Shown here: positions 1-64,000 of the stretch, piece after piece
Numbering within the stretch: position 1 is the first letter of the stretch
Layout of the letters: the number at the start of each line of letters is the position of its first letter
NCBI GenBank assembly: GCA_008632985.1
Contig: QPGO01000049.1
Location: forward strand, 186,001-250,000
DNA: 64,000 nucleotides
Origin: Psammoneis japonica
Taxonomy: Eukaryota
Reading direction: 5' to 3'
Position numbers and translations under genes: made by a program
Notes under the pieces: model-generated
Database searches by the model: none
Told to the model about the DNA's origin: nothing
Seen by the model: only the letters and a program-made list of their open reading frames with translations

Positions 1-539
1 AATTGTTTGCCAACACAACCTGGCTCAACCTTGCCATTTTGCCTCTCTTTTCTTGCAAATCTCTCAATGTGAAGACATGGAAGAGTGCACCCCTCTGCTG
101 CACTGGCACAGCACCATGTGCTGCTGCCTGGCATTAGCAGCAGTTTCTCCAAGGCCCATGCCAGCTGCATGACAACCTCAACAATGCCATGCCAGTGCTC
201 CAAGATCTGCTTCCAGCAATGAGATTGATGGTTTCACAAAAACAGAGACTGCTCCACCCAAGCAAGCATTGTCACACCCCATGTTGCACAACAAGCTGGC
301 TGCAAACTCTAAAAAGATGCCAAGCAGTGCTGCCATCTTTCTGCCACTGGTTGGGCAGTGTGCAAATGCCATCTCTTGTCAAATCAGGGTTGCAAAGCCA
401 GCTAAGAAGCCATGTGACTCTCTGGGGCACCTTTGTTGTTGGTCACATTTTTGGCAGAGGGGGGGGGGGGGGGGGGGGGCACCACAGGGCTCAGGGCAAG
501 CACAGAGCCAAAATGATTAAACACATGTGAGACCACAAG

Positions 540-1700
540 TCCAGACACTTTGTGAGCCACACCATGATGCAAAAAAATGAGCAGAAGTCCAAGCAATTTG
601 CAACAGACAAGCCATGGTCACCTCACATTAGGCCAAGTGCATTTGCTGGATTCAGCAAAATGGCTCTGGGTCTGCCACCAGTGGAGCCAGTGAAAAAGCT
701 GCTCACCAGAAAAAGGCAAGAGTGGCATGGATGAACCAAAAATGAAATTGTGCAGTGTTGAGCTTCTTTCAGAGCAAGGCAAGACCATCAAAAAGAGTCT
801 CATGAGTGTGGTGTGTGCATTGCACATCACATCAGAGAGCCTCTTCTTGGCAGCCTTGCTGCAACAAAAAGCCTTTTCAGTGTGAGCTGCATTTTGACAC
901 ACAGAAGCTTGCCACAAGGAGAGTGCACCCTGTTGGCTGAGCAAATGGAATGATGTCATCACAACACCAGTGCAATGCCAGACAATGTGTGAGAGGACCA
1001 TCAAGAAGATGTGGCCTGTCTCATCTCTGCTGGGAAAGAAGGAGACCAGCAGTTTGTCACATGAACATTCCCACCTGTCACAGCAAAAAGCCCTGATGCT
1101 GAGACTGGTGCAACAAAAACAAAGATGAATCTTGTTTTTCATTGTGAAATCTTCACAACAGGAGTGGCATGACATCTTTTGACAACAACGACATCTCAAC
1201 AGCAAGATTGGTGCACCCAAGGAAGACCCTGCCATGTGTGCCAGTGCACTTTGAAGAGCTCTGTTTGCAACAAAGAAGCAGAGGACAAGGAGTGGGAACC
1301 ACACAAAACCTTGTGATGCTTTGAGGCTTTCCTCTGAGCAAAGCACAAAAGTGGTGCACAGATGTGGAGGAGATTCTCAACTTCATCTTTTGAGTCCCAC
1401 ATGCGCAACACATTTGCAGAGGTGTTTCAAACATCATGTGCTGGCATGGCACACTTCTGCCCACTGACAATGTTCAGAACATCTTGAAGAATCTGGGAAG
1501 CAGCATGGCATTTTGTTGGCCAGGCGGCAGCTGTGGTCAGGAAGCAGGAGGCAGAGAGCACAACTGCTGAGGAACAGCTTGCAACAACTGCCATGAGACC
1601 TGAGTGCAGAAGATGTTGAGAAAGTGCATGATGGCTGCTGAAAAAGAAAAAAAATGATCAGCAGCAAAAGTTTGCCAAGCTCTCAAAGAGATTTGTTGAG
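540..1700 (+). mobile_element. Possible degenerate non-LTR retrotransposon fragment (host of the nested Copia insertion)
   Basis: The 'EQKSKQFATDKPWSP' motif resembles, from memory, the region between endonuclease and RT in diatom LINE-like elements. Heavily frameshifted. Confidence 0.25.
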
Positions 1701-1784
1701 CTCTTAAAAAGACAAAAAAGGAAGAAACAACAGAAAAGGCAACATGGGAAAAAGAGCAACAAGCTGGATGCCACATCAACCAAC

Positions 1785-2128
1785 TGTTGGAGCAAGTTAG
1801 ATGAGGGTGTTAGAGAACCCGGAAATAGTTGAAGTCCATGGATGTTTTGGCTCCTGACGTGGCCGGTCTGATGACCATGCATTCTTTGTCATCGCACTGT
1901 CATCCCTGAAATGAAGTGTTCTCACTCTTTAGAGTGAATCATCTGGTGTGTCAACTGTTGTCATCGGTGATGGGAAGCATCTGTTAAAAAAACCAAATCC
2001 ATTTGGTGTGCAAAGTTGTGTTGAATGATCTTCCAGGCAAACCACACAAGCAGCCAGGATGTGTGCATCAAGAGTGGAGGAAGCTTCACAAGATTCCCTT
2101 TTGCCGCCATTAACATGTTGGTCCAACA
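1785..2128 (+). repeat. 5' LTR
   Basis: TGTTGGAGCAAG...GGTCCAACA; aligns to 9067-9410. Confidence 0.95.
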
Positions 2129-2143
2129 TTCACTCTAAAGAGT
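2128..2143 (+). promoter_or_regulatory. Primer-binding site complementary to the LTR (putative self-priming PBS)
   Basis: ATTCACTCTAAAGAGT is the exact reverse complement of LTR 1924-1939 (ACTCTTTAGAGTGAAT). No tRNA-type TGG PBS is present. Confidence 0.65.
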
Positions 2144-2214
2144 CACAAGCATGCAAGTGAGACAGCTTGCCATGCCAAGTCTACATTCTCTTGAAGAAAC
2201 AAGCAGCCTGCAAG

Positions 2215-5200
2215 ATGAGCAGCAGAGGAACTGGCAATCTGCACAAGAAGGGCCAAGACGGAAAGTGTGGCCAAGGCAATGGGAATGAGAACCCCAAGTC
2301 TTCCGGATCAAAGAAGAAGATGCACAGCAACAGGAGCTTTAACCCTGAAATGAAATTCCATCCATCAATGATGAACAGTGACTCTTGAAACACAACGTTG
2401 GAAGACATGAAGACCAAGATTGTGCATTGCATCCAGAAAGAGTGCAAACAAGGAAAGCACTTGGCATGATCACTAGAAGACATGAAGCACCAAGACTTTT
2501 TGGGTGAGGAACCAACCTCAAAGGTGTCCAACAAAGCAAAGGACTCACCAGAAGCAGAGCAAGAGAACAGACAGTTTGAATGCAAGCACAAGGCTGAACT
2601 CAGAGATCATTGCCACAAGACAAAACAGTTCGAGGAGAACAAGAACAAGGCATTTGCAATGATTCTTGATGACTGCTGCGTGAGACCAATGAGGCAGAGA
2701 GTGCAAGCAGATCTCACCTGCAGTGCAATCAGGGACAATCCCATTGAGCTGCTAAAGCTGATCCAAACCCTGACACACGACTCCATGATGGGTCGACACC
2801 CATTCCACACACTTGCGAAAGCACTCAAAAACCTGTTGGATTTAAACCAACAAGAACAAGAGCCGATCAACAACCACCTGTCACATTTTAAGAATCAACG
2901 TGATGCAACAAGCAAAGGATTGGGCGAAAACTGCTTGACAGTTTCATTGAAAACTCAAAGGAGCATGCCACAGCAGGAACATCAGAGAAAAAGGAAATGA
3001 AGCAGTCTGCATGTGAGACATGGGCTGCATTCCCATTCATTCCAAACAGCAATGATTGCCATTGCAAGATCCTCAAGAAGGGTCTGGTTAGAGACTGCAG
3101 CATGGGAAAGGACATGCATCCCAAGATGCTGGAGTCAGCCATGAATGCACCACTCAACCATTCAAAGGACAATGATCCGCGCAAGAGAAGCGCAAAGAAC
3201 TGCAATCACAGATGCAATGACAACAATGACAAGGACAAGAACAAGAACAAGAAGGACCAAAGTCACTTGCAAAAACAAAGCAAGTCAATTGCATGCCACT
3301 GCTGTGGGGTGGTGGACAATCATGAGTCCAACGAGTGCAAACTGAGAAACAAGATGCCATTTGATCAATGGTGGAAGAAAACTGGAAAGAAACCACAGCT
3401 GCCAGGGCAAAGTCATGCCCAATCAAGAACTGGAAAGAGCAGTTCAAGCAAAGACGACACAAGTGTCAAGTCCGTGCTCAGCATGACATCTGCTTGGTCG
3501 TGCAAGGGCCGAGCAAAAGCTTGGCATGGACTGCAACTTGGGAATGATGACCAAGGAATGAGCTTAAATCAGAACAACACAAACATTGAGCCAGAAGAGA
3601 TTGTCCTTGACAATGGTTCTGCCCTTGGCATGGCAGCAAGCCAGAGGTCAGTGCACAACGTGCGACTGGCAAGGATCAAGATTGATCTGTCCACCAACGC
3701 AGGAGTGGACACACTGGACAAAGACTGCACCATGCCAGGATGGGGTGATGTAAAACTGGGATCCAAGAATGTGATTGCCAACATCCTCAGTTTACGGGAT
3801 GCAAAACAGAAGTGTTGTGTTGCATGCGACAACAGAGCAGCAGATGAGTTCCGACTGCCAGACAGGAAAACAAACAAACAAGCCGTTAAGGCCAATGACT
3901 CAGGGCTGCACACATTTCAACCAAGCAAGGAGTCCTTTGAGAACGTCCAATGGCTGCAAGAAGAGGAGCGACATGCAAGTCTGAATGTGACAACCACGAG
4001 GAAGTTGAGGCAGAAGATGCCAAAACCCGGCAGTGCATCAGGGGCCATGATCCCCTCTGCTAAAGAAAATGCCAAGGGCCACACAAAACGCAAGATGTTG
4101 CAAGTGAAAGAGGCACTGCGATTCTGTCATGAAGCCGGCATCCCAAGCACACAGGATTGCAGACGTTCCTCATGTTCCAATCAGGTGAAGAACTTGACCA
4201 TCGCACCAGATGATGCTGATCAAATGGTGGCCACTTGGGGTCCACCAGAGGATGCGATTAAAGGAAAGACCAAGCGTGCTCATCATTCCCATGAGAGGAA
4301 CGTCGTGATTGCTTTGCCATCTGAATTTCATGAAAGGCAGAGCAATGGAATGACTCTGTGCATCAACATTGTGGAGGTTTGTGGAGTCAAGCTCCTGCAC
4401 TCCATCAACAAGACTGTTGAGCACAGAGCAAATGTGAAACTGAAGTCCAAGAAGCACGTGGACATTTGCAATGCACTGGACATGATGCCACGACAATGTG
4501 ACAAGGCACTCTTCAAGACAGATTTCATGGAATGCAATCCTGAGTTCAAGGAAATGTTGTCCGAGGTTGCAGACGGTGTGAGCATTGAACTCATTGCTGT
4601 CAATCCGAAAGACCATGTTCCCAAGGTGGAGCGCAGTGTCCAAACCATCAAGGAACAAACTTGCACCACGGTGCACCATGCACCGCACAAGGCAATGCCA
4701 AAGCTCATGTGTGAGCATGCGGCAATCAAGAATGCTGTGATGATGAACATGTGCCCACAAAAGGATGGCATTTTGGATGTCTGCAGTCCTCACACCATTG
4801 TGCAACAACAAAATCTTGACCATGCCAAACATTTTGAATTTACATTTGGAGAGTTTGTGCTCTCACACATTGAGAACCAACCCACCAATGCCATGGAGAT
4901 GTGTGGCGTTGACAGCATCCACCTGTGCCCATGGTTTGATGCTGACAAAGGGGGGCACTGCACCATGAATTTGCACACGGGCAAGCTTTTAAATCCCTGC
5001 AAGTGCACTGCAGTTCCACTGACCAGCACCCACATTCGGGTGGTCGAAAAGATGGCCTCTCGTCAAGGCATTGAAGAATTCAAGTTCACTGGTTGATGTG
5101 GTGACAATCTTTGTGACACCAATTGGACTGCAGGAGAGGAAGACAGCAACAGCGACAGTGACAGTGACAGCGACAATGACAGCAACAGCGACAGCAACAG

Positions 5201-7290
5201 CAACAACAACAGCAACAGCAACAGCAAAGATGACTCAGACAATGAACAAGAACAAGCTGATGAAACTTTAGCAGGAAATGAACACAGTCCCAATCAACAT
5301 CAAGAAGATGAAGAGAAAGAAGAATCCAATGAAATGGGAGACATGAAGAACAACCAGAACCCACTGAGATCAGAGGTTGAACAACAAGATTGGGACAAAG
5401 CCACATCACTGCATCAAAGGACAGCATGCCTGACAAAACAACACACAAGAAGAAAATTCTCTTTCCAGGAGTGGCAGCCACAGAACAAGAGGAACGCAAG
5501 CAAAGGAAACTCAAATGCTGCCATCATCTAAGAGCAAATGTCAATCCCAATCCTGAGGATGACATGGAATGCCACTGCAAGGTCAGACTTGTCACAGCAT
5601 TCTTTATGTGCAAGCACAATGACAGAGCAAGAGTGGGATGAGAGATCTCACTTGGACAACAGCACCTGTTGCACAAAGGCCTAAAGTCATTTGGCCAGAG
5701 AGGAAATGATGCCTCAGAAAAGGAAACAAAACAACTGCATGATCAAGTGTGTTTCCAACCAGTGTCAGTGAAAGACATGACTCCGCAAGAGAGAGCCAAG
5801 GCAATGGCAGCCTTGATGTTCCTGATGGAGAAGCGTGATGGATGCACAAAAGGGCGAATGGCATGCAACGGCAAACCATCATGAGAAATGCTAGACAAGG
5901 ACAAGTCAGCCAGCCCAACAGCATCACCAGAAGGAATTGTGATGACACCGCAGTGACAGATGTGGATGAAGGATGTGACATTGTGAGCACGGACATTCCA
6001 AATGCATTTGTGCAGACAGAAATTCTGGAGCCACAGAAAGGCAAAGACTGGATTGGGATGAAGATCACAGGTTTGCCAGTGGACATGCCAGCAAATGTTG
6101 ATCCCAACCTCTGTGGACTGCATGTGGTCCTAGAGAGAGGAAGGAGAGTCCTCTGCGCACAAGTGGCAAGAGCCATCTGCATCATGGTGGTCGCGGCTCC
6201 ACCATGGCACAAGAAGTTCCAAAAGGACTTGGAGAGGGTTGGGTTTGAGTTCAACCCATGTGACCCATGCATTGCCAACCACAATGGAAAGCAGCACACA
6301 GTGCAACCCCACATGGATGATTTGTCATCAAGTCACAGGAATCCCAAAGCAAATGACAAGTTTCTCAAGTGGTCAAACAGAGAGTGCGGGAGCCATGGCA
6401 AGGTCGTGGCAACAAGAGGAAAGAAACATGACTGCCTTGGCATGATCCTGAATTTTACCGACAAAGGAAAGCCAAGGGTGGACATGAGAAAGCAAACAGG
6501 ATCAATGGTTGACAGTTTCCTGGAAAAGATCAAGAGCACAGATTTCACAATGACACCTGCAGGGGAGAACCTGTTTGAGACAGGCGGCACAAGACTGACC
6601 AAAGAGAAAGCACAAACATTCCATGTGTGGGTTGCCAAAGGATCATTTGCATCCAAGAGAGGCCGCATGGACATGCACCCCACAATGTTGGCGCCATGTG
6701 CGCAAACAAGGGAACCCACAGATGAGGACTGTACAAAGTTAGTCCAATGTCTCAAGCATTTGAATCAAACAAGGAACGAAGTGGCAACACTGAGTGCCAA
6801 GGATCTCCGAGTGACAAAGTGGCACGTGGATGCATCATTTGCGGTGCATCCAGGTTTCAAGAGCCACACCGGAGCAGCAACAACAATGGGCAATGGGGCA
6901 ATGCAAGCCATGTCAAGAAGACAGAAGCTCAACACACGAAGCAGCACAGAAGCTGAACTGGTTGGAGTCAATGATGCAGTGACTGTGATCCCATGGACAT
7001 TTGTGGAACACCAAGGACATCCTGTCAACAAGAATGTGCCACACCAGGACAACAAGAGCGTGATCTTGTTGGAGACTGATGGTCATCAAAGTGCCGGCAA
7101 ATGGTCAAGGGGGGCACTCAACACAAGACATTTCTTTGTGTGCAACCAAGTCAAGAAGGGCAATCTGACCATTGAATGCTGTCCTGCAGATGCAATGATT
7201 TTGGGGATTTTATGACCAAGCCATTGCAAGGCGAGAAGTTTTGCAAATTTAAACAAGCCACAATGGGGTGCTGGAGATCCAACAGCAACA
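2215..7290 (+). pseudogene. Copia gag-pol polyprotein, frameshifted and with stops
   Basis: Zn-knuckle-like CHCCG..H..C, protease VLDNGS, integrase HVPKVERSVQTIKE, RT DIPNAFVQ/NPCDPC/HMDD, RNase H KWHVDASFAVH, SSTEAELVGV, QDNKS, DFMTKPLQG. Confidence 0.92.
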
Positions 7291-7679
7291 GGAGTGGGCT
7301 CCTGTTTTGTGATGTCAGACGAGAACTTTGACGTGCATGGGTGAAAGATCCCTGCAATCCAGAGAATGATGAACGTGCAATCTTCTCCCGGAGCAACACA
7401 GAGCAAGCAACACCAAGCACACAATTGAACACTGTCCCACAGATGCAATGATTTGGGATTTTATGACCAAGCCATTGCAAGGTGAGAAGTTTCACAAATT
7501 TAAACGAGCTGCAATGGGGTGCCAGAGACCCAACAGCAACAGGAGTGGGCTCCTGTTTTGTGACATCAGATGAGAACTCTGATGCACATGGGTGAAAGAT
7601 CCCTGTGACCCGGAGAATGACAAATGTGCAATCTTCTCCCAGAGCAACACAGTGTGAGCAACACCAAGCACACAATTGA
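7171..7679 (+). repeat. Tandem duplication (~253-bp unit) of the pol 3' end
   Basis: ATTGAATGCTGTCCTGCAGATG at 7171 and ATTGAACACTGTCCCACAGATG at 7424. The copies align over the whole unit. Confidence 0.92.
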
Positions 7680-7685
7680 GCAACC

Positions 7686-9054
7686 ATGGACGGCGATGAA
7701 GCTGGAGGTTTTGATGGAAATGTGGCAGCGGCCGAGGCTCACGCATTTGATGAACGCATGTGCTGTGAGCATGTTGCCTTCAACAAACACAACAAGGTGG
7801 CAGCAGCTGGCCCAAGAACTGTTTGCTTGAGATCATGAAGATGTTCAAGATGCCTGTCCGACACAAGGATTTGTTTGTTTGGAGAGGAGAGCTGGTTGTG
7901 AGCAAAAAACCCACAGATTGGCAGAATGGAACAAGACTGCAGCGTTTGAGCAGCATGCCAAGCAAGTGCAAAGAAGAGTGCAGAACCTGCAAGGTTTTTG
8001 GCACAGAAGGTTACATCCTGCCTTTGACCCAAACAGGAGAGGAGAACTTAACAGAGGAAGACTGCCATCACTGAGTCCTGATCTAGCAAGAGATGCACTG
8101 GATTGCACACAGCTTGCGGTGGACCTGGATTGCAGGCACAGGCTCAACTCTGATCACATGAGAGCGGTGTGGCAAGAGAGATGCTGTGCAAGGCTCGAAG
8201 CAATGGTGACCATGTTCAAAATGCACCAGACATGGACACCGCTGATGTGGGAACATGTGTCCACTGCAACCCCAATGATCTCTGTCCATGACAAAATGGA
8301 GACCATCACAGACAAGATGAGGTGGCCAAACATTGTGGCGCACACCCGTGAATCCCATTGGAAATTCCTGGCAAAGAGGTCAGAAACTCACAACAAGACA
8401 AGGCCGTCCTTTGCTCAGGGGCAACAGAACCCTGCAAAATTGGCCTTTGACAGGCTGGACATTGACCACATGGCAAAGGTGCCGTGGCTACAAGGTGTGC
8501 CGATGTGTGGCATGGATCGACTTGGGCAATGTGGCGGACTGATGTGTCCAGGCCACAACCACACTGCCGAGCATCCAGATTTTAGTGAGCTTGTCAGAGA
8601 CAAGAACGGAGTCATGTTTGATGCATTGAAACTGTCAATGTTCTTCAGAAGGACAATCGAATTTGTGTCCAATGTGCAGAAGCATCCCTGGGTTGTGCAC
8701 ATGGTGGATTTTCTCACATTGACTCCAAACACCATGCACCAGTGGATCTGAGATCAAATCAAACATTCAAATGACCGGAATGACACGCTGAGTGATGCAC
8801 AGCAAGAATTGATCAGACAAGATTTTACAATGACATTCGTCAACCATGTGAAAGGTGTTGCCAATGAATTTGATGACATGCGGTGCTGCTCAAGCAACAA
8901 ACAAGACACGTGGCATTTTGCCGAAGGGGTGAACATTGAGAGAGAACCTCATGATGTTCTCTACAATGTGTGTGCAAGGTGGAACATTTTCCCTCGAGGA
9001 GATGTTCCAACCTGTGTTGCAGCCCAAGAAGCATTGGACAAACAATCAGAGTGA
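7686..9054 (+). pseudogene. Extra sense ORF of unknown function between pol and the 3' LTR
   Basis: ORFs 7879-8751 and 8809-9054 are in the same frame, separated by a single TGA. An ATG lies at 7686 in another frame. Confidence 0.6.
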
Positions 9055-9066
9055 GTGGCAGGAGTG

Positions 9067-9410
9067 TGTCGGAGCAAGTTAGACGAGGGCATCAGAGAAC
9101 CTGGAAACAGTTGAAGTCTGTGGACATTTGGCTCCTGATGTGGCCTGTCTGATGATGATGTGTTCTTTGTCATTGCACTGTCATCCCCAAAATGAAGTGT
9201 TCTCACTCTTTAGAGTGAATCATCTGGTGTGTCAACCATTGTCATCGGCACTGGGTGGCATCTGTTGGGGCCAAATGCATTTGGTGCACGAAGCTGTTGA
9301 ACAATCTTCGAGGCAAACCACAGCCACACAAGCAGCCAGGACGTGCACATTGAGAGCAGAGGAAGCTTTGTGAGATTCCCTTTTGCCGACATTAACACGT
9401 TGGTTCAACA
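9067..9410 (+). repeat. 3' LTR
   Basis: TGTCGGAGCAAG...GGTTCAACA followed by TSD CCAAC. Confidence 0.95.
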
Positions 9411-10964
9411 CCAACAAGCTTGTCTTTGAAAAGCAAGGGTGAGCCAGATGCTTTGTGAGTTTGCTCTGGATGCAGTCAGGCTGAATCACCAAGTTTTACA
9501 GAGTCAAAAAAGTGAGCTCATTTAACAATTTCTTGCTGCATGCTGACTTTGGCAATGAGGACCTCAAGCAGATGGGTCCCATCATTGAGCCAGGCAAATC
9601 ATTCTGCTGCTGCTGTCCCATCACAGAGCAGAGCTCCATGGACTCATTGGTGATGTGTCCCTTGACAACATTGCTGCCATCTCAAAGGAAAGCTCTCAAA
9701 ACAAAAACCCAAACAATGAGTCTTTGCATGTGTTCATTGAAAAAAACACTGAAGACAGCAGGGTCATCAATTGCAAAAAAGAGTGGGAAGAGCATGGGCT
9801 GGGCACACAGAAAGATTTCTGTCCCCCCCCCCCCCAAAAAAAAAAGCTGCTCCAAGTCAACCAAACTCAAAATCTTGTCTTGCTCATGTGCTGACAAACA
9901 AAGCAAGCAGAGCTGTTTTCACATCTTGTTCAATGCACCACTTGGCTCTTCATTGAGCAAATTCCCCCACCTGAAACTCCACCATGCAGCCAGCCAGTTT
10001 GAACAAAAAGGATGCACCCACTTGACACAGAATTCAAAAAAAATCATTGCATTCCAGAGACAACAAAGAGGTGCAAAGGCATTGTGACAAATCAACTGGA
10101 GTGCAAAAAATGACGAACATGTTTTCCAGCCCCATGATGATGGCAGCATGGTGGAAATGCCCATCAAGGACATGCAAGAATGGACAAAAAGTCAAAAGAA
10201 GGATCCTGAAGAGTTGTCATGTGAAGCTGCAGCCACCAATTGGTTGGCACCTTCACAAAAGGAGTGGGGGTGGTGGGTGACAACTTTCCTCAAACAGGTG
10301 TTGATGCTCAAGCCACTGCTGTCATCCCAACACCTGACCAGTCACACATTGGGTCTGTCCAACTTCACCTGTTGAACATGTCAAACCCCAAAAAGGCAGA
10401 ACCGCATGTCCTCCACTCCAAGTGCTTGCCTCCCTCATGTCAAAATCCAACTTTTTGAGAAATGGGTTGAAGGTGTCAAGGCTGGCTGGGCTGGTCTGCA
10501 AAGTGAGTTGCATCCTGAAGGTGAGGAATTAGGTGATCCCAAAGTTGTCCCCAAAGGACTCGTCACCGTTTCAATTCTGATGACATCGAGTGGCACCGAC
10601 CTTGTAGGCTCCTCTAATTTTGAATCTTCTCTACTTAGTGAAATGATTGGCTTTGGTTCCTTTGCTGTTAGAAATGCACTTTGAACACCAAAAATCACAT
10701 TGGCTGATTCATCAAACAATACAAGTACATCATGTTTATTATCCCTCTAATTCTCTCATGCCATACCCAGATCTCATCGATGTCGACAAGATGTGCACAG
10801 ATTCCTTTGTTCCCACATCATCTCCGTCACAAACATCGGTTGTAGCCCTACTCGTACAAATCAAAGTCTCGCCAGCACTGATAATCGTGATAAAATAATT
10901 GCAACATCACCACTACTAGTAACTCTTTGGTGGTCTTGGGGTTCTCACTGCCGATCGCTCTAGA

Positions 10965-15317: not shown

Positions 15318-15559
15318 TGACCCTGTAACCTGTAGTGTTTGGCAGCGTCTAACAAACGCGTGGTTCAGCAAACTGGAACCCGAGACCGGTGGAGGTCTGC
15401 CCAAAAGGATCGAAACATCTCAAAGAAAGATAGTAGTTTGAACCATCAGTTTTTCTCTTGCATAGTAGTCGCAGTTCTTACTATCGACTTGAGCTGAGCA
15501 CAAACACCCATTTCTTAAAGTTGTCAGCACAATCACTGACTTTTTGGTGCTGTTGCTAT

Positions 15560-51600: not shown

Positions 51601-52018
51601 CTCGAAATTCGACAATGCAAGTGTTGCAATACACGATAAAAATGGCCAAGATGCCACATAACAAACCAATCAACAAGGTCAAGATCCACTGCATTAGTTC
51701 CTTTTCGTACGGCATGTTGAGCAACCGGCGTTTCTTTTTCGTGATTTCTTCTTCTTCTTGGGCCATTTCGTTAAAGGTGAAATAGCTCATGCTATCCCAG
51801 TGGTGTGTATCATCGTTGTACAATTGACACTTTTTCTGGAGACGCTTCTTGGTTGCCTCGATCCTGTAAGAATTGACGATGGGATCAAAATCTAATGAGG
51901 GAAAGACACCGCGAGGTGCAAATTCATCTACGCCAATATTCACTTCGCGAACAAGGGAGACGCGTGACCAATTGCTCGTCTTCACTGAGGAGCGTCGCCT
52001 TCGAGCTGCGGGGGCCAT
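48682..52018 (-). CDS. CLC voltage-gated chloride channel/antiporter with CBS domains (multi-exon)
   Basis: GSGIPE, GPEGP, GFAVAFGAPVGG, GLFMP signatures. C-terminal CBS motifs (GFPV, LGLRTLPV, VGIITR). Several introns between 49.2 and 50.3 kb. Confidence 0.93.
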
Positions 52019-52329
52019 GGTTGCTTGCTTCTTGGTTGTTGGTTTGTGGAACTTGTGAGGTATGAGGTGGTACAGGTCTTGGGTCTTCGCAGAATTCTGG
52101 GATTATGGGGTCTGGGGGTACCGGGTGGTAGGTCTGGGGTCGCATCCACTTTACAGTACTTTGGCTGCATTTACTTAGAGCCCCCCCACGAAATTCAACC
52201 TTTACTTATGCACCTGTGACCCCNNNNNNNNCCCCGCCAGTTACAAAAAATCCGTAGAAGTGACAGGTCGTCGCGCGCCACATTTCCCCCCCTTTTTCTG
52301 GCACGCTGTGAACGACCCGCATCGTTGTT

Positions 52330-55300
52330 GCAGGTGCGCATTTCACACTTCATCCACAGCTTTACTTTTCAACAAGGGTTTGTCAAGAGCCCCTTTGTGT
52401 TCAAATTGCCATGCCCATGCTTGAAACAGTGGGGCCAAAAAGCCAGTCAAGTCCTTTGGAACTAAAGAAGTTGAGGCAAAGTGCGCCGAGGCCGGCACCT
52501 CACCCTTTGAAGAAGAGCGAGCACGCCAGCTGACAGAAATATGGAAGAGCTGGATTTTGGTGGTCAACCTTCATGATGAACAAGGAAATGGTGAACAGCA
52601 GCAGCGACCCATTGGCAATGCAAATGTGCCAACAGATCACTCCATCTTTTGGCTGGGCGGCCAAAATTTGCTGGGGTGATGGTGCACTCTGGCGTGAACG
52701 CCAAAGTGGGCTGGGGCTCGAGTCAAGGGGCCAACCAAGTGTCTCAGCTGTCTGGGTGTCTGTGCATCTAGGCATGCCATCACAGGCATGAGACCAGGCA
52801 CTTCCACCTGACCAGACCAAAGAAAAACTGTTCTCCTGTCCCTGGAGCACATGCCCTTGTTGTTTGCAGGGCACACCTGTGCAACGGTCTCTGCAAGGAG
52901 ACTTGTCTGCTGCAGCATGTGAACAGTGGCAAGGTGTTGCACTGAATCTGGGCTGGAGCTCTGCTTGCCATGTTTGCTTGACATCATTCAAGCTCAAGTG
53001 TTCAGTCAGAACAAGAGCTGCTCGTTCTTGTCCAAATCCTGCCAGATTGACAGTCTTGACGACCCTCGTCAAACCACGAGCTGTCATCAAGCAACAACAA
53101 CTTCACAAGGACACAAGTGCATGAGTGATGACTGGAGTGGTTTCTGGGGTCCACTTGACAGCAAAGTCAGAAGCCACTCAGAGAAAGATGCACAGGTGAT
53201 GCACACAGTGTCAAGTTGTTGACATGGGGAGCAACGACCGAAATCAAAAAAGAGCTGGGTTTTGGCAAGCAACCTTCATGACAAATGAAAAAAACACCAA
53301 TTGGCAGCAGCAACAAATTGGCAGTGCAAATGCCAATGGATCACTCCATTCCTTGGTTGGGAAACAGAGAAATCCACTGGCATCAGCGGCACATTCTTGT
53401 GCGAGTGCCAAAGTGGGCTTGGGTTTGAGTCACACCAACCAAGTGTCTTGGCCTTCTGAGCATCTGTGCATCTGGGCATGCCATTGCATGGGAATGAAAC
53501 CAGGCACTTCCACCTGGCCAGACCAAAAACTGTTCCTCTGACCCTGGAACACATGCCCCCGTTGTCCACAGTGGCACCTGCGATGGTCTCTTCATGGAGA
53601 CTTGTCTGCTGTGTGTGGACAGCAGTGAGGTGATGTGCCAGGTCTGGGACAGAAGAACAAGAGTGGCTCACTCTTGTTGTTCAAATCCTGTCAACAGCCC
53701 ATGAAAGAGAGGGCAGCAAAGCAAGGTGATGCAGAAAGCAAAAGGAAGTTGATGAAGCCAATGAGCTCAAATGGAGGTGCAACCAGCACAAGCAAAGCAA
53801 GAAGATTTGTGAAAAAGCCACAACTTGAGGTGGCTGGCTTCAGAGCAAAAGCAAGCAAACAGTGGTGTGCCAAAGGCCCAGGCTGCAGGAGGAGTCAGAG
53901 GGCAATGCCATGTCACAAGAACCCAAATGCTTTAAACTGCAAGCTGCCAGAGAAAAGTGCAACTCATGATCTGAAAGATGCAGAGAGCAAGATTCAGCAA
54001 GCACTGCCACAAGATTGCAAAAACAATTTGAGTCATTGGTTGAAACTGCAGCATGCACAAGAATGGCCCACCATGCACCCAGGAATGTTCTGTTTTCAGC
54101 TTCAATGTGAGCCATTCAAAAATGTCACATCAGTCACAGCCAACAAAGGACAACAGGTCAACAGATGAAGTCATTTTCAAATGCTGGACAACCTGATTGG
54201 CAACACTCTTCCTTGTCCTTCTTGTCATGGCCACTGACACAATGCAGAGGACTCAGTGAGCAATGATGCAAGTTGTGAAGAACAGCCCTGCCATGCTGCT
54301 TGGCAATGTCTGCAACCCTTCATGCTTGAACACATCAACTCTGACTTGGTTGGTTTCACAAAAGCATCCTTGCACAAAGAGCAACATGGGCACCTCATCT
54401 GTGTCGAGTTGCTCCAGCACACCCAGTTGCTCCTTTTTTTGCACACATCCATTCCAGCAAAAAAGAGTGTCAGTGCAGAGTTTGATCCATTGTTGGAGCA
54501 GAAATGGGAGCAGTGGCCTGCCTTGCTTTTTCAATCAAAGCCTTGCTGTGTCAACAGAGTGTGAGTGCACAACAACAGCTGGCACATCAGCATGAGAACT
54601 GGCTGAGTGGCAACTGATGTCCTCACCTCAAAGGCACGCAAAAAGCTTTTGGCTGCAGAGAAAAAAGTTTGACATTTTCCATGCCCTTGCAGTTTTGGGC
54701 AATGTCGCTGCATTTAATCAAAACTTTAAATTGTGAAGAACAGTGAAATGAATGACAAAACTCTTCTGTTTGGATGAGCGCAAAAATGTGTGTGAGCTGT
54801 TTTGACTGTTACAGTTTTGTCTCATGACATTGCAAGCCCTCAAACAGATTTTTTACCTGCAGTTTGAAAAATTGCAAAGAGATCTGTGCCTCACAGAAAT
54901 GTTGATGACACATCTGAACTGAACAGGGCAACAAGGTGAAACAAGTGATGGACAGATGCGCACACATGGTGGGGATGCATGCATGCAGATGCACCATGGA
55001 AGAGCAACTTTTGGCAACAATTTCTGGTTCTTCAGCTCTGTTCAAAGTTTTGCATCATGCATTGGTTTTGTTGTCAGGGCTGATCACATTGCCCCATGAG
55101 CATCTAAACCAAAAGTCTGTGGGTCAAAATGTGTCAAGCTGAGTCATTCTTCTGAGTTGCTTGCAAAGAGGAACATGAACATTTTGCACTCAAATGACAT
55201 GGCAGTTGAACAGAGAAAATGCGAGGACAACAAATTTTGTCACATGGGTGAGGAACAAGTTAAAAGGTGTTCACTTCGAGCAAGAAAATTGAGCACCGCT

Positions 55301-55560
55301 TGCATCAATGCAATGATTGACTTGCCATTTCTCAGTGCCAACAACCCAATTTTCCTTCTTAACATCCTCCAGAGGATTGACTTGTGAAGAAGTGGTGCCA
55401 TCAGCATCTTTGACTTTTAAGCTGCCGGGTTCTCCGGCGCTGTTTTCTGGCGTGAAAAGCAAGTCGCTTGCCGTCGCTGGGCTTGTCAGACAGATCACAA
55501 CAGGCCCAACAAGAGACATGTGGTTGACCGACGCATGCCATTGCTGCTTCCAGTCACTGC
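52330..55560. other. TpA/CpG-depleted hypermutated zone 4
   Basis: Same signature; contains an internal duplication and a pseudogene. Confidence 0.85.
52610..53695. repeat. Diverged direct duplication (~52610-53040 vs ~53325-53695)
   Basis: Shared blocks GATCACTCCAT, GCCAAAGTGGGCT, CCAACCAAGTGTCT, CCAGGCACTTCCACCTG. Confidence 0.8.
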
Positions 55561-55620
55561 CAAGAGGACTGATAAGCAGCGCAGCGCCATGGTCTCTCTC
55601 GCTGTTCTGTGTAGCTCGAG
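54148..55620 (-). pseudogene. Hypermutated partial copy of the PDI-like gene 5' part, interrupted by a ~600-bp insertion (~54660-55265)
   Basis: 54148-54660 aligns to 41641-42130, and 55270-55620 aligns to 42150-42490. Peptide 'VLEQLDTDEVPMLLFVQGCFCETNQVRVDVFKHEGLQTLPS' matches 'VLDQLNTDEVPVLLFVRGYFYETGEVGVDVLKYEGLQTLPS'. Confidence 0.92.
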
Positions 55621-55800
55621 TGCAATGTGCCACCGGCACGACTGATCGCCAGCGCAGCCAGCGCGGTAGCGCGCGCGCGCGATCGGATTGAAACAGCAAA
55701 AGCGCCCAACATGGAAACCGGTGGCCTTTGTTGGCTTTTTTCTTTTTTGCTATCATACATTGCGGCGACGCATCGACAATGTCCGATTTTCAACTTGACC

Positions 55801-57063
55801 ATGGTGACGACAATAGCCATGCTTCGATGGTCTTTTTCATTGATGTTAATCATAACGCTCGTATATGTAGCCTTGATTCCAGAATGGCTCGAATTTAGCG
55901 ACATGAACGAATCGTTGGCAGATGCACCGGGCGAATTATTGCTTGGAATCAATCGTCAAGAAGCAAATAATGCATCAACACCAGAAGAGCCGTTGTTTGT
56001 TTCAATCAATCATCAAGAAGCAAATAATGTATCAACAACAACAACACAAGAGCCATTGTTTGTTCCGAGACTTTATCTTTGTGGCTGGGTCAATCCTGAA
56101 GACATACCAGGATTGAAGCTCCTCTTTCCCAACCACACGTACTTTCCCCTGAATGGACAAACCGGGCCACCAAACACAACACGAGCAAATTCCCATGATG
56201 TTTTGATATTGAGCGAATCACCTGCTCCCGCATGCAGCAGCGTTTGGACAAGCGCAAATAACGCATTTTTTGAATGGATGAAGAAATTTCCGGGCAAGGT
56301 CCTATCGCGGAATGGAGAGTCGAGACACATGTGGCGAGGACTACGCGGCGAGTACGAGAATCTTTACTTTATGGGCTATTACCCAGATGACGTTGAGAAA
56401 CGGACTATTCGTTTCATGTTTATGCAAATGATATTGCAGCAATATGGACCAGAATGGTGGCCCAAGTTGATGGATCCTGACGAAAAACCAGTCAATACGA
56501 AAGAACGGTTTCTCATTTATGCTGTTGGTAACTGTGTTGCCTATCGACAGGCAGCTATTTCTCGATTGGCAGAGATTGACACAGTTGATTGTGTGGGTCG
56601 ATGTTGTGGACAGCTAAACCGATCCTTGTGGCGATCGCTGCCGAGGGATAGTCCAATTCATAGCAATCACTGGGAAAACAACAGGGAAGGCTTTTCAAAC
56701 TACCGATTCTGTCTCGTCATGGAGAACAAATCTCAATCAGGGTACGTTACTGAGAAAATTTTGAATGCGTTTCTGGCGGGATGTGTCCCAATTTGGTACG
56801 GTACAGACGAGATTTTTGACATCTTCAACAAGGAGGCGTTCATCTATTACAATCCAGCCGACCCAGAACCAGCACTGGCTCGTGTTCGACATCTTGAGGC
56901 AAGCACGGAGGCATACGACGAAATCATGAAACAGCCCATCTTGGCGCATGGTGAAGAAACAATCAAAAAGTATTTCTCATATACGCCAGAGCTTGGTGGA
57001 GGAGAAGTTATCAAGAGAATCCATAGAATGATGAATCTTTCAACGACGGCTAGTAATTTGTAA
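55801..57063 (+). CDS. Glycosyltransferase family 10 (alpha-1,3-fucosyltransferase-like), type II membrane
   Basis: YRFCLVMEN..GYVTEKILNAFLAGCVPIWYG motif and an N-terminal TM segment. Start codon uncertain. Confidence 0.9.
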   Translation: MVTTIAMLRWSFSLMLIITLVYVALIPEWLEFSDMNESLADAPGELLLGINRQEANNASTPEEPLFVSINHQEANNVSTTTTQEPLFVPRLYLCGWVNPEDIPGLKLLFPNHTYFPLNGQTGPPNTTRANSHDVLILSESPAPACSSVWTSANNAFFEWMKKFPGKVLSRNGESRHMWRGLRGEYENLYFMGYYPDDVEKRTIRFMFMQMILQQYGPEWWPKLMDPDEKPVNTKERFLIYAVGNCVAYRQAAISRLAEIDTVDCVGRCCGQLNRSLWRSLPRDSPIHSNHWENNREGFSNYRFCLVMENKSQSGYVTEKILNAFLAGCVPIWYGTDEIFDIFNKEAFIYYNPADPEPALARVRHLEASTEAYDEIMKQPILAHGEETIKKYFSYTPELGGGEVIKRIHRMMNLSTTASNL

Positions 57064-57713
57064 GCGCCCAGCAAGTACTGCACAAGATAGCTTTACTCAT
57101 GGACATGGTTTGAGTGATTTGCACGGTGGGAAATGGATCAAGAATATGGATATAAAGCTTTTTGCTTGTTTGATAAGCAAGCCTCGAGGAAAGGAATATG
57201 CCTCCTTTTCTCACCCGGCGGTTCAACTGTAACCTTACAGTACGTAGGGCCCTAAATAACAAAAAGAAGCATTTTTTGAAATTTGAAATTTTGGTGAAAG
57301 AAAAAAGATTCGTCTTGGTCAAATGCTGCGCGAATCATCATCCTACTGCAGTACCTTAACCGGCCGAACCATGAGAGCGCAGCTATACTACTCTATGCTA
57401 CTACTAGCTAGGGCCCTACAGTAGTAGAGCTAGTAGTAGCCGGTCCATCCAGAGCGAGGTCCCAAATACCCAATCGCACTGATTGACAGACTGTTCTACT
57501 AGTACAAATTTATTCTACGTAACTTTCTTCGACAGTCTCACTTCCGAAGACGTCCCCCAACGCATTCAAAAACGTGCTTTTCTTACCAGGAGGACGAGAG
57601 ACGCAATAGAATAAACCACGGCAGGGACCTGCTGAAGGGACAGAGATTATTTGTCGATACCTGCACGAGCAATAGCAACTCTTCTGAACTCTTCTGGAGT
57701 ATTCGCATCATTC

Positions 57714-60244: not shown

Positions 60245-60767
60245 AAGTTTTGTTATGGTCGAGATAAGGGAGTATTTAGTGTAGAAAGAGTCTACTGCAT
60301 AAGATTTGTACATAGGAAGCAATTTCTACTAAATAACAAAGGCAGAATATTCGTTAGCAACTTGTCCTTCTAGACGAGAATCAACAATCATCATGTTTTG
60401 TCCCGACCATAGACAAGGTTTTGACAGAATTCGATGAGAGCGTCGGCTCTGTATGGCCTTCCATTTTCACAGAAGTGAATTATATTGGATATGGCATTGG
60501 AGTAGAAGAGGAAAAAACGAACAAGAAGGAAGAAAGTGCAAAGGCGTCTCGATTCGGATTGGCGGTAGTGTTTGGGTCATGGGCGAAGATCACAAGCACG
60601 TAATAGATCTTATGAAATAAGAGTGCAATACTACAGTATTCTACTGGCAGAGATCAAGAGTTTGAAAATCAACATGCATTTCTAGTTTTGACATCTACAC
60701 TTGAATGAGCGGGTCATCAAGAGCAAAAAAACCATTCACATCCCCCAAAACAACATTGTCCCAACAT

Positions 60768-62936
60768 TTACTCTTCTTCTTCTACTTCCCCATCACGCGT
60801 CTTTTCCGGAGACGCCTGCTCGTGGAAACGCAATCCAGGAGAAATGGTAATATCGGCATACGGCTCGTCTTGATTCAACTCCACATAATCCCACGTTTTG
60901 AGCTGCAACAGCTCAAAAAACACCCCCGCCGCCGTGCGCCTCGAACGGCCATAGCTCAGCTTGTCATACGACACTTGCTCCGTGTCGTCTCGCATGGTGC
61001 GCTTGAGCATGCCCAGCACTTCCACCGTGTGTTTGTGCCACTTGGAATTGGCCGATACCAACTCACCACCCGCCTCTTGGCGCTCGTCGTCCATGCCCAT
61101 GTCATTGACGGGGCCAAGCGAAAACTCGGAATCGCGAGAACCGACACTGCGGGCGTCTTCTGGGCCTATTGAATAAGAATAAATTGGAATGTGGTGAGAA
61201 CAACACTCCGTACTTTGCAAAAGATAAAAATCAATATCAATAGAAAATACTCACTGTCCACCATGGCCTTGACCTCGTCGACAAAACCAATCTCGTCTCC
61301 ATCGGGATGCGGAAAGCTGTCCTCTTGATCAAATTCCATTTGCTGCGGTGGTTCGTCATCGACCGGAGGCGGAAAGTCGTCTTCTTGATCAAAAGCGGGA
61401 GCTTGATCCTCAAACTCAACCGGCTGCTCTTCTTCTTCTTCTTCGTCATTACGACGCCCCACTTCCACTTCTTCTTGTGCCGCCGCGTCTTGCATTTCCG
61501 CTTCCGCTTTGGATTCTTGTTGCGCTTCACCCGCGGCGCCGCGCATGGCAAAGGGAATGGGCTTGCCCTTGAGGATTTGCGTGTTGCGCTCCCACACCTC
61601 CAAAAGATCGGGAGCCATGCATCCGTCGTCCGCCAAGCCGGGGCGCATGAGAAGACGTTCATTGGAAAGGGACGACAAAATGATGGATTTGGGCTTGGGT
61701 TTCTTGCCGAGACCGCCGTCCAGGACCAAATCGCTCGTGTCGCGCAGCATTTGCTTGATGTAATCATTCGTGAGTTCCGTCGCGTCATTGTCAATAATAA
61801 CCTTGCGGCGTTTGCGCATGCGGCGTGGCTTCTCCTTGGACTCGCGCTTGCGCTTGGGTGACGATGACTCTTGTGTGTCATTCAACGAAATACCACCCGA
61901 ATCGTCCTGGCGTGCCTCTTCTCCCTCGGGAGACAGCGCCATGATGCTGCTTGCGCGATTCTGTTGCGAGCCGTCATCCTCAAAGGGGATATTGGAAATA
62001 TCGGCGTCGTCCTCAAACGCGGGAAAATCGTCGGGTTGGTCCTGACCGGGCGTGACGGGGCCCATGGAGGAATCATCCGCGGGTTTGGAGGGGAGAATGG
62101 AAGAGCGGCGGAGCTGTGAAGCGAGACAAAGCAACAGAAAAACGCCGTGAGCAACTCTTCAGTAACAACACACAACACAACAATAAACCTATATTTCAAC
62201 TCACTTGAGTATCCGACGTAAGCGAGTCTTCTGCGGCTCGCACGCGCTCCACATCCGACACTTGACTCTCATTGTCGGCTCGTTCCGTATCCAAACTGTC
62301 CTCAAAGACGTGACGGTCTTCATCCTCGGGATCAAAGGGAGCCCAATCATTCTCCTCTTCCTCTTGCTGTAATTGCTGCGCCTGTTGAGTCCCCATCATG
62401 GCACGACGAGCGTCGTTCTCGTCTTGCGGGTCATCTTCCGCCAAGACCCACTCGTTCGCGTCGTCGGCGGTTTGATCGAGTTCAAACGGAATCAACAAGG
62501 CCGCGCCCCAATCGCCCTGCTGGCCGCCGGCGTTGTTGTTGTGATCCAACAAGAGCACGGGCTGCTCTTCTTGGTATTCTCCAAAGTTGGCTACATTGCC
62601 TTCGGACTGACGTCGCTGTTCCAAATCAACCGAGGTCTTTTTCGCTTCCAAAGACGACGACCCATGAAAGGCCAGTTTGATTTTCACCATGGCTTCGGTA
62701 CAATCGTGCATGAGGTACTTGACCTTGCGGGAATAAATCCGAACCACACCCAGCAACAAGTGGCCACTGACACGCAGAGCAAGTGGAACGGTCGGATTGA
62801 CAATACTATCCACCGAAGCGGAAATGTCGGTATTGAAAATCTGGGGACGGCCCAGTTTCTTATCGCCCCAATGCGCCGCCAGCCAAACCTTGCCGAGGGG
62901 ACCTTTTTTCGCGAGAATAATTTGTGAATAAAACAT
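60768..62936 (-). CDS. RAD21: Cohesin kleisin subunit Rad21/Rec8 family (3 exons)
   Basis: N-terminal [43 protein letters not shown] and C-terminal [15 protein letters not shown] winged helix. Confidence 0.95.
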
Positions 62937-63714
62937 TGTATTGAAGCGTTTCTGTACAGTATGAGAAAAAGAAAGCGCAAAAGTGAGAAAGCGGTGAGAG
63001 AGCGAATAAAGCTGCATAAGGACTCGATTCTGAAAACAGCGCGCAGCGGCAACAGAACGTTTTCAAACTCAACAACAGCGACGCTTCTCCAATTACACAC
63101 AGAAACAACGACTCCTTTTCCAAATCACACGCTTCTACGTTAGACTCATAAACGACACAAGCAACTCCTCATCCGACTCACCTGTTGCTGTCGCTACGAC
63201 GACTCAGTAGGATCGTGTAGGGATTGTTTTTCGCTCGTACGGTGCGGCGTGTATGATACGGATTGCTGCCGCTCTCTCCACCACTCTCTCGAGTCAATTC
63301 AAAGCAATTTCAAACAATACGACGTTCTTATCAACAGTGCAGACGACGACGACGGTATGCTATAAATCAACAATGCAGACGCAATCGGCAGTGTTGTTGT
63401 TGTTGTTGTTGTTTTGTTGTTGTTCATGAAGTGAGCCGTGCTTTTTGTTGTGAAGCATGTGAGCCGGCGCGGACGTAGATCCTACGGAGACTTTGTACTG
63501 AGAATCATGTATGTACCTACATACCAAAAATCTTGTATGTAGGGATATACTAGATGCTCCGTAGAGCGCGCTGGAGGCAGTTTTTGGCGCGGCGCGGGTT
63601 CTCGTTCTGATCTCAAAAAAGAGCCAGAGAAGATAGATTGCACAGCAAAGTTTTGTGCCCCCTCTCTCTACTCTAGAGAGTAGAGAGAGTAGAAAGTCAC
63701 CTCGACACACCAAT

Positions 63715-64000
63715 GCAACCATGACAAAAAAGGGTCATCCAAGAACCAAGCATTTGAGTGCAAAGTTGCATCACTTTAGGAGGGATTGTGGTGGTGTCTC
63801 CCAGAGGTGAGGAAACATCAACCCCAAAACAAAAAACAAAAGAAAAACTTGAGACTTTCTCAAAAAGTCAATTTTTGAGTTTTGTGGCCCATGACAGAGT
63901 CCAGCTCTGCTGTTGTGCACAAATGAGCACAAATGACAACCTCATTTTTTAGCTTTTGTCAACTGCTTGGAGTGCAACAATCTTGAAAAATTTGGTGGGG
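63715..64000. other. Start of another TpA/CpG-depleted zone
   Basis: Abrupt loss of most TA/CG dinucleotides after ~63715. Confidence 0.55.

Follow-up and report, generated by a model that had tools for sequence, protein, structure and literature searches.

Islands of mobile DNA in a probable diatom genome carry the footprint of context-dependent TpA-to-TpG/CpA hypermutation alongside CpG decay

RESULTS

Five zones depleted of TA and CG

We analyzed a 64-kb stretch of DNA (positions 1 to 64000, referred to as the window) in which discrete islands, one of them holding a Ty1/copia-type long terminal repeat (LTR) retrotransposon, have lost most of their TA and CG dinucleotides. Judged from its open reading frames (ORFs), the window is eukaryotic: it encodes a Rad21 N-terminus, a CLC channel, an ankyrin-repeat protein, and GT10, thioredoxin and DUF1681 proteins, all in long ORFs without interruption. 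The closest named relatives of the CLC ORF are diatom proteins (33-40% identity), and the transposon protein has one named relative, a copia protein from the diatom Fistulifera solaris; the host of the islands is probably a diatom. In the Protein Atlas, the CLC ORF matched generic CLC clusters, with no informative taxon among them.

The composition of the window was profiled in sliding 1-kb windows as observed/expected (o/e) ratios of the dinucleotides TA, CG, TG, and CA. Inside the islands, TA o/e was 0.01-0.16 and CG o/e 0.0-0.39, with TG and CA raised to 1.5-2.4, whereas the intervening genes showed a TA o/e of 0.4-0.86, a CG o/e of 0.8-1.2, and TG/CA ratios of about 1.0-1.4. A two-state hidden Markov model (HMM) applied to all 15573 pyrimidine-purine (YpR; Y, pyrimidine; R, purine) steps of the window returned exactly five depleted segments, separated by four normal segments:

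Zone 1, 4-10522: 53 TA, 136 CG, and 2338 TG+CA among 2527 YpR steps; holds the copia LTR retrotransposon and its mutated flanks
Zone 2, 15490-22877: 32 TA, 48 CG, and 1710 TG+CA; interrupted by an N gap (21433-21624); the switch at its right edge takes <100 bp
Zone 3, 42552-46638: 24 TA, 55 CG, and 868 TG+CA; multi-copy repeat DNA with a summed contig depth of 148-955 versus ~60 in genes
Zone 4, 52326-55411: 12 TA, 30 CG, and 698 TG+CA; holds a mutated copy of a host gene fragment
Zone 5, 63706-63996 in the HMM, its start only, truncated by the window end at 64000: 2 TA, 0 CG, and 61 TG+CA

Pooled over the zones, the counts of TA, CG, and TG+CA are 123, 269, and 5675, compared to 1393, 2455, and 5658 in normal DNA (chi-square 2164, 2 degrees of freedom). 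At the edges at 10522, 22877, and 63706 the composition switches in less than 100 bp. The GC content of the zones (0.47-0.48) is the same as outside, because the TA and CG conversions cancel each other. Zone 4 is, like zone 3, multi-copy by summed contig depth, and a second N gap lies at 52224-52231. Thus, the hypermutation is confined to discrete regions of mobile or foreign origin, the neighboring genome is normal, and genes only a few hundred bases away from the islands are not mutated.

Direction of the changes

The direction of the changes can be read from a gene fragment that is present twice in the window, once in normal and once in depleted DNA:

41638-42471: parent segment without the mutations, made up of the 5' part of the thioredoxin-domain gene and the DNA upstream of it; normal composition, used as a proxy for the ancestor
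54145-54669 and 55250-55601: mutated copy of this fragment, in zone 4 and its right edge, with ~580 bp between the two parts

The 33 TA dinucleotides of the parent became TG or CA in 30 cases in the mutated copy; one was kept and two were changed otherwise. For CG, 26 of 38 were converted to TG or CA, and the 7 that were kept all lie at the zone edge. The TG and CA dinucleotides of the parent were conserved. With the unmutated copy taken as the ancestor, transitions at TpA affected 16 of 31 A bases (0.52) and 14 of 33 T bases (0.42), compared to frequencies of 0.06-0.15 for A and T in other contexts. At CpG, 19 of 38 C and 10 of 38 G bases had undergone a transition, and all contexts outside TpA and CpG stayed at 0.03-0.15. 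Sorted by the preceding base, A transitions amounted to 8/67 after A, 16/31 after T, 4/63 after C, and 5/49 after G. The outcomes at TA were strand-symmetric (16 TG, 14 CA), and a runs test for strand-coordinated clusters of TG versus CA outcomes found none (z=0.02; range -0.71 to +1.43).

The ~580 bp at 54670-55249 that interrupt the mutated copy relative to its parent have a summed contig depth of 169-288, versus ~60 in genes, which suggests a small multi-copy insertion.

A copia retrotransposon mutated after insertion

Zone 1 provides a second view of the process, as it contains an element with both of its LTRs:

1785-9410 (+): Ty1/copia-type LTR retrotransposon with an LTR pair, a target-site duplication, and copia-like internal ORFs; TA o/e 0.09, CG o/e 0.30
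1780-1784 and 9411-9415: 5-bp target-site duplication CCAAC, identical on both sides
1785-2128 (+): 5' LTR, TG...CA ends
9067-9410 (+): 3' LTR, TG...CA ends
2904-5096 (+): 730-codon open frame (P0121), upstream part of the copia polyprotein, 0 Tyr; 85 BLASTP high-scoring segment pairs to 80 long relatives
5839-7215 (+): 458-codon open frame (P0122), reverse transcriptase-RNase H part of the copia polyprotein, 0 Tyr
7831-8751 (+): third open frame, 306 codons
7168-7431 and 7421-7682 (+): internal tandem duplication; 33 differences, 27 of them at TG|CA doublets or CG<->TG/CA sites

The element shows the features by which a Ty1/copia retrotransposon is recognized: direct LTRs with TG...CA ends, a target-site duplication of 5 bp, and a polyprotein whose relatives include copia proteins that bear RVT_2. 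The two LTRs of such an element are identical at insertion. Here, they are 84% identical over 338 aligned bases, and 26 of the 53 substitutions form 13 doublets in which one copy has TG and the other CA, while 8 CG<->TG/CA sites and 2 TA|CA sites contribute another 10. Such TG|CA doublets are expected if each copy has resolved an ancestral TA or CG on its own. They also occur, 12 times, in a direct repeat in zone 4 (52545-52912 and 53250-53611, 77% identity). Since the LTRs of an element flanked by a target-site duplication differ chiefly by TG|CA doublets, the mutations arose in the chromosome, after insertion, and site by site. Between the two units of the internal duplication, differences not due to YpR conversion amount to about 6 of 262 positions while TA is nearly gone, which puts TpA turnover at no less than ~70-fold the background (non-YpR) divergence, as simple arithmetic on a footprint rather than a directly measured rate. 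The DNA beyond the element (1-1784 and 9411-10522) and the host-derived gene fragment in zone 4 are equally mutated, and therefore the target is a chromosomal domain and not a single element.

The proteins encoded by the element offer an independent polarization. A protein search (phmmer) with the 458-codon frame found 603 relatives carrying the copia reverse transcriptase family PF07727 (best E 1.8e-139, 50-55% identity). The Tyr content of 120 relatives is 2.6-4.7%, compared to 0 Tyr in the 730- and 458-codon frames. In the alignment with the 80 long relatives, 32 columns are conserved as Tyr (at least 60% Tyr among at least 10 relatives), and the corresponding codons in the window encode His (14), Cys (13), or another residue (5), and never Tyr, so that 27 of 32 are CAY or TGY. 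Further changes at conserved columns fit the same conversions (7 L>P, 4 R>Q, 3 V>A, 2 I>T, and 2 I>M). The frames have stayed open despite heavy mutation because TA loss removes the TAA and TAG stop codons, and only CGA to TGA creates new ones. Pfam matched no domain in the three open frames of the element, the related protein P0124 scores just 46 bits, and no credible family was found among 18 + 126 stop-to-stop ORFs from the zones; the copia identity of the zone ORFs came from protein search alone.

At the DNA level, 80 related metagenomic loci have a TA o/e of 0.30-0.95, versus 0.09 for the element in the window, and therefore the copia family is not TpA-free by nature. None of these 80 loci shows the extreme TA-loss signature, in a scan that is biased against mutated copies because Tyr/Phe forms part of one of its two search patterns. 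Across the loci, TA o/e and the RTAY share show a weak correlation (rho 0.19, p 0.09).

Five of these loci (L066, L078, L047, L007, and L023) have moderately low TA (0.30-0.47) and CG (0.27-0.58) at TG/CA ratios of 1.42-1.58, and may be partly mutated copies in other hosts; in the TA-poor ones, such as L066 (0.30) and L078 (0.37), the sites are too few for the context rule described below.

Three independent polarizations, from the gene-fragment pair, the copia Tyr codons, and the 80 metagenomic relatives, thus agree on the direction, TA to TG/CA and CG to TG/CA. The initial annotation of this DNA, made from the letters of the window, had described five sharply bounded zones lacking most TA and CG next to normal genes, and had taken the direction of change from duplicate pairs. 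The 1-kb profile, the HMM, the gene-fragment pair, and the within-zone duplicates bear out both statements. It had also named observations that would speak against it, namely a TpA rate no higher than that of other contexts, or active transposons whose consensus is already TpA-free; the transition frequencies (0.42-0.52 versus 0.06-0.15) and the Tyr-containing relatives with their normal TA show the opposite.

The target is T-A-Y

The TA dinucleotides that remain in the zones are not a random sample. Of those in the RTAY context, with a favorable flank on both sides, 4 are left in the zones, compared to 269 in normal DNA and 4345 in the 80 relatives; half-sites, with one such flank, number 38, 515, and 7077, respectively, and YTAR sites 79, 127, and 2367. 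Survival was calculated for symmetrized tetramers in the zones against the 80 relatives, and the order is the same against the genes of the window itself:

TTAA: 0.59
CTAA/TTAG: 0.35
CTAG: 0.17
GTAA/TTAC: 0.13
CTAC/GTAG: 0.06
ATAA/TTAT: 0.055
ATAT: 0.025
ATAG/CTAT: 0.014
GTAC: 0.012
ATAC/GTAT: 0 of 1956 expected-class sites

In agreement with this order, the five TA dinucleotides that are kept in both copies of within-zone duplicates are all preceded by T. The accounts nearly balance per flank class: at half-sites, the combined loss of TA and CG is 44.7/kb against a gain of TG and CA of 44.5/kb, and at RxxY sites the loss is 20.3/kb against a gain of 24.0/kb. The gain at half-sites is lopsided, with 28.0/kb for RCAR+YTGY versus 16.5/kb for RTGR+YCAY. 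Polarized half-sites show the same preference directly, since the mutated pair adjoins the favorable flank in 13 of 16 cases in the duplicated gene fragment and in 8 of 11 Tyr codons that follow a pyrimidine, together 21 of 27 (p=0.006). Polarized CG half-sites are split 5:7, with no flank preference.

As read from these counts, the pattern follows a strand-wise rule, T-A-Y to T-G-Y, which is equivalent to R-T-A to R-C-A, with a preference for the base after A of C ~ T > G >> A. This preference is the reason that TTAA survives and that ATAC/GTAT, GTAC, and ATAT are almost extinct. The T-A-Y rule, the sparing of TTAA, and the rule for the choice of strand are new here.

CpG loss is a separate component

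CG survival is 0.15-0.29 in all ten tetramer classes, without any hierarchy, compared to 0 to 0.59 for TA, and the polarized CG outcomes are 17 TG and 9 CA. CpG was thus converted to TpG/CpA without context preference, as would be the case in methylation-driven CpG decay. In diatoms, DNMT5a is required for methylation of transposable elements, according to PMC9998398, which also describes RID-related DNMT4 genes as widespread and of unassigned function.

The boundaries of the two losses differ as well. In the mutated thioredoxin-gene copy, CG sites are retained starting at 55426, whereas conversion of TA continues as far as 55558, ~130 bp further. On the right side of both zone 3 and zone 4, the recovery of CG precedes that of TA by 200-600 bp (~300-600 bp at zone 3), and at the remaining edges the two coincide, so that they differ at 2 of 8 edges. 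Some related elements from other organisms are depleted of CG but not of TA (TA/CG o/e of 0.59/0.20 in L020, 0.61/0.35 in L037, and 0.63/0.39 in L003). TpA loss therefore runs ahead of CpG loss and is separable from it, which is also new here. The differences in saturation, boundaries, and context dependence argue for two activities.

Repetition is not the trigger

A self-BLAST of the window detected a long tandem array in normal DNA:

25705-36102 (-): 873-bp tandem array, ~12 copies, neighbors 99% identical, in an ORF with Big_9/cadherin repeats; unmutated

This array is 10.4 kb long and lies 3 kb from zone 2, and its composition is normal (TA o/e ~0.6, CG o/e ~1.15). Likewise, of the two copies of the gene fragment, the one in zone 4 is mutated and the parent at 41638-42471 is not. 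What the process follows is thus the chromosomal domain and not repeated sequence, and neighboring DNA of host origin is affected over 100-300 bp.

The array is part of a giant set of ORFs (24231-38783, -) with bacterial-type Big_9, Cadherin_4, and Cadherin_5 repeats. It comprises four ORFs (24231-27686, 27635-30166, 29848-31176, and 31125-38783) that overlap and lie in different frames, owing either to frameshifts or to assembly slips inside the 873-bp array. An adhesin-like protein with bacterial-type domains is unusual for a eukaryote.

Read support

The zones were compared with Logan contigs, an independent k-mer assembly, of sequencing run X1; all runs come from one sample and one study, and X1 may be the source of the window assembly, so that this comparison offers a different assembler and not an independent platform or isolate. 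Contigs of X1 with a single-copy depth of 60-73, the same as in the flanking genes, reproduce the zones and cross their boundaries:

40001-43009: 2 differences between contig and window
42984-44023: 1 difference
53508-55022: 0 differences
54996-57485: 0 differences

Zone bins reach summed depths of 148-955, compared to ~60 in genes, since they also attract contigs from diverged copies of these repeats at other places in the genome. Relative to the window, these copies show 91 A>G, 93 G>A, 78 T>C, and 64 C>T differences, and 14-31 of each type of transversion.

In the smaller run X2, either RNA or shallow DNA from the same sample, contigs between 40001 and 58000 cover genic stretches only (for example, 40001-42122, 47149-49243, 50666-52082, and 55766-57252), with no contigs over most zone bins. 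Run X3 gave none. In the ankyrin-repeat ORF (47043-48536), the region 47900-48550 attracts many diverged contigs and variant letters in the two runs X1 and X2, at a depth of at most 421 and with normal TA and CG content, which suggests an ankyrin family with several copies or variation between alleles.

Could the zones be a sequencing or assembly artifact, for instance from miscalled modified bases? They hold N gaps, and every read set comes from one sample. Against this stand the k-mer contigs, which over lengths of 1-3 kb and across boundaries show 0-2 differences from the zones, the fact that each ancestral TA bears one of the two possible single changes and never both, the closing mass balance per flank class, and reading frames that are open for 730 and 458 codons. 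We regard an artifact as extremely unlikely. The initial annotation would have been weakened by reads from an independent platform that contradict the substitutions; on this point, the k-mer assembly supports the zones, with data from the same sample.

DISCUSSION

The window contains islands of mobile DNA that underwent dense transition mutation in place, with a TpA and a CpG component. We are highly confident of the descriptive parts of this account, i.e., near-saturating in-place transitions, two components, the T-A-Y rule, and the targeting of domains. The explanation that we favor as a whole, with moderate confidence, is that the islands are mutated by a TadA/ADAT-like DNA adenine deaminase recruited by chromatin, next to CpG decay. 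The TpA component would then be the process that has been seen live in mutation-accumulation lines of the alga Bigelowiella natans. A TadA/ADAT-type (CDA-fold) deaminase, recruited to silenced chromatin, would deaminate adenine in DNA to hypoxanthine, and the CpG component would be a separate and slower decay through deamination of 5-methylcytosine (5mC) placed on the same domains. The net effect would be irreversible inactivation of the elements, with all Tyr codons lost and the protein past recognition by Pfam. The lead for this chemistry is the match between the T-A-Y preference and the specificity of TadA, as the native enzyme depends on UACG and the TadA-8e variant prefers UA, according to PMC12296453.

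The core of the initial annotation, a targeted process that turns TpA into TpG/CpA in domains of repeats, next to CpG decay, was supported by every test run. The annotation knew of no description of such a process, but Mettrop et al. (bioRxiv 10.64898/2026.01.13.699255) describe A:T to G:C hypermutation at TpA only, in DNA of nucleocytoplasmic large DNA viruses and virophages integrated in the B. natans genome. According to this preprint, 231 of 302 nuclear mutations in mutation-accumulation lines fell in two integrated viral regions, 230 of these 231 were A to G or T to C, which the text places entirely at TpA, and the mutation rate of these regions was ~1000-fold over baseline. The preprint also reports 124 genomic clusters that are TpA-poor, CpA+TpG-rich, and enriched for reverse transcriptase and DDE domains, and its authors propose an ADAT2-like deaminase (10.64898/2026.01.13.699255). 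A full-text literature search found TpA-targeted mutation described in no diatom and in no organism other than in this preprint.

The likeness to B. natans, as far as the preprint text goes, lies in A:T to G:C transitions confined to TpA, yielding TpG/CpA, and in long-term TpA depletion with CpA/TpG gain in clusters, the enrichment for reverse transcriptase and DDE domains being a B. natans feature. The differences are several. The host is a rhizarian there and probably a diatom here; the viral insertions still contain 3.3% TpA, whereas the LTR-retrotransposon islands are near saturation; the spectrum in B. natans is nearly free of G:C to A:T changes (1 of 231), whereas 26 of 38 polarized CG sites are converted here; and rates were measured in B. 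natans, whereas the window holds a footprint alone. The preprint text contains no mention of CpG, of diatoms, or of a wider sequence context such as flanking bases or TTAA, in contrast to T-A-Y with TTAA spared (10.64898/2026.01.13.699255). Since CpG conversion accompanies TpA loss here, the case is filed as a variant or as two co-targeted processes, and we read it as a variant of the B. natans-type process in another host lineage, with saturated retrotransposon targets, co-targeted CpG loss, and a T-A-Y and strand rule.

Other known systems match in part. CpG decay of methylated transposons shares the conversion of CpG to TpG/CpA in transposon domains without flanking-base preference, but accounts for the CG half of the pattern only. 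TadA/ADAT enzymes and the adenine base editors derived from TadA convert A to inosine, which is read as G, and their preference for U or T before A matches T-A-Y, as far as described in PMC12296453; the natural substrates of these enzymes differ, being tRNA loops. No TadA/ADAT-family gene was seen within the 64-kb window, and we know of no natural enzyme of this family that edits chromosomal DNA domain-wide. ADAR hyper-editing and APOBEC hypermutation in animals are likewise forms of mutational inactivation of selfish elements by deaminases, but their substrates are RNA or cDNA, at or before the time of integration, and their changes are strand-biased and clustered, whereas the changes in the window are post-integration, strand-symmetric overall, and unclustered.

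The rival explanations have to be judged against the same observations. Repeat-induced point mutation (RIP) of Neurospora and other fungi also inactivates mobile DNA irreversibly by dense transitions at one dinucleotide, and leaks into flanks, so that a RIP-like system triggered by duplication could be considered for these repeats. However, RIP converts C to T at CpA and thereby creates TpA, depends on duplication, and affects the two copies alike; in the zones, by contrast, TpA is destroyed (o/e 0.01-0.16), the ~12-copy, 99%-identical 873-bp array near zone 2 is spared, and a single member of the duplicated gene fragment is mutated. These three facts exclude a RIP-like mechanism, to which we assign next to no probability, and they uphold the distinction from fungal RIP that had been drawn in the initial annotation. 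Editing of the retrotransposon RNA or cDNA by an ADAR- or APOBEC-like enzyme, followed by reverse transcription into the genome, would suit a best-characterized zone that is a retrotransposon, and ADARs, according to the Discussion of the B. natans preprint (10.64898/2026.01.13.699255), favor a U in front of the A that they edit. Yet the LTRs show independent TG-versus-CA outcomes at 13 sites, the DNA outside the element and the host gene fragment are equally mutated, and both strands are hit equally (16 TG, 14 CA). Moreover, a pyrimidine and not G is preferred after the edited A, and ADARs are, to our knowledge, specific to animals. This route is very improbable. Somewhat less so, but still quite unlikely, is that TpA loss is a by-product of CpG decay, in which T:G mismatches recruit error-prone patch repair of the Pol-eta type. 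Somatic hypermutation gives A to G at WA motifs (W, A or T), and TA and CG loss share zones. However, ApA is at background (8/67, versus 16/31 at TpA), so the WA rule fails. TA loss in the copia element (o/e 0.09) is more complete than that of the supposed trigger, CG (o/e 0.30), and reaches ~130 bp past the last converted CG region in the polarized copy, and further also at 2 of 8 boundaries. Relatives with a CG o/e of 0.20-0.39 keep a TA o/e of ~0.6, and TpA mutation in B. natans is described in the preprint text without mention of a CpG component (10.64898/2026.01.13.699255). Of the three mechanisms proposed in the initial annotation (a TadA-like deaminase, Pol-eta-type repair, and a modified T or A base), the Pol-eta route is therefore disfavored, and what remains of its reading is a targeted TpA process in which targeting of A and of T are indistinguishable.

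This last point leads to the main rival, the same targeted process with its chemistry on thymine. A TET/JBP-type dioxygenase or another T-modifier would convert the T in R-T-A to 5-hydroxymethyl- or 5-formyl-uracil, which pairs with G and results in T to C, and the same enzyme class might also act on 5mC in CpG. Oxidized thymines mispair with G, the motif reads equally well as R-T-A to R-C-A, and TA and CG are both palindromes of a 5-methylpyrimidine and a purine (T being 5-methyl-U), so that one account would cover their joint loss. On the other side, nothing in the window favors T over A, and TA and CG differ in saturation, boundaries, and context (survival 0-0.59 versus 0.15-0.29), which argues for two activities. 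In addition, oxidized T gives some transversions too, and only transitions were seen. We consider the thymine route possible but improbable.

Several points weigh against adenine deamination in silenced chromatin as the favored explanation. TpA is self-complementary, and therefore A to G on one strand cannot be separated from T to C on the other; both the deaminase and the link to silencing are inferred. TadA-type enzymes act on single-stranded loops, so that double-stranded heterochromatin would first have to be opened, and the outcomes lack the strand-coordinated clusters of APOBEC-type bursts. At full R-TA-Y Tyr codons, i.e., those preceded by a purine, the coding strand shows 11 CA versus 5 TG where 1:1 is expected; this difference is not significant, and the skew may hint at a strand asymmetry tied to transcription or replication. 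CpG is never mentioned in the B. natans text (10.64898/2026.01.13.699255), and with no CpG component there the two cases may differ as systems. Finally, the supporting reads and the assembly derive from one and the same sample, and the probable assignment to a diatom draws on the best named CLC and copia matches only.

Targeted A:T to G:C hypermutation of chromosomal DNA had not been described before one preprint of 2026, and the same footprint, at saturation, in a second and distantly related alga indicates that the process is probably widespread and not a curiosity of one strain. The trinucleotide rule and the strand-choice rule set a standard, as any candidate enzyme must reproduce both. 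Since mutated elements lack Tyr codons and fall below Pfam detection, transposon annotation and dinucleotide-based analyses are biased in such genomes. A natural domain-targeted DNA adenine deaminase, if real, would be of interest to genome editing. A tentative extension, which we hold to be less likely than the mechanism itself, is that diatoms and chlorarachniophytes share an ancient chromatin-guided DNA adenine editor, derived from TadA/ADAT, that reads T-A-Y on either strand and erases it from transposable elements and integrated viruses. If this is true, the shared editor would constitute an 'A-RIP' genome-defense system of the SAR (Stramenopiles, Alveolata, Rhizaria) supergroup that works next to CpG methylation, and it would be the first enzyme of natural origin to correspond to the adenine base editors of the laboratory.

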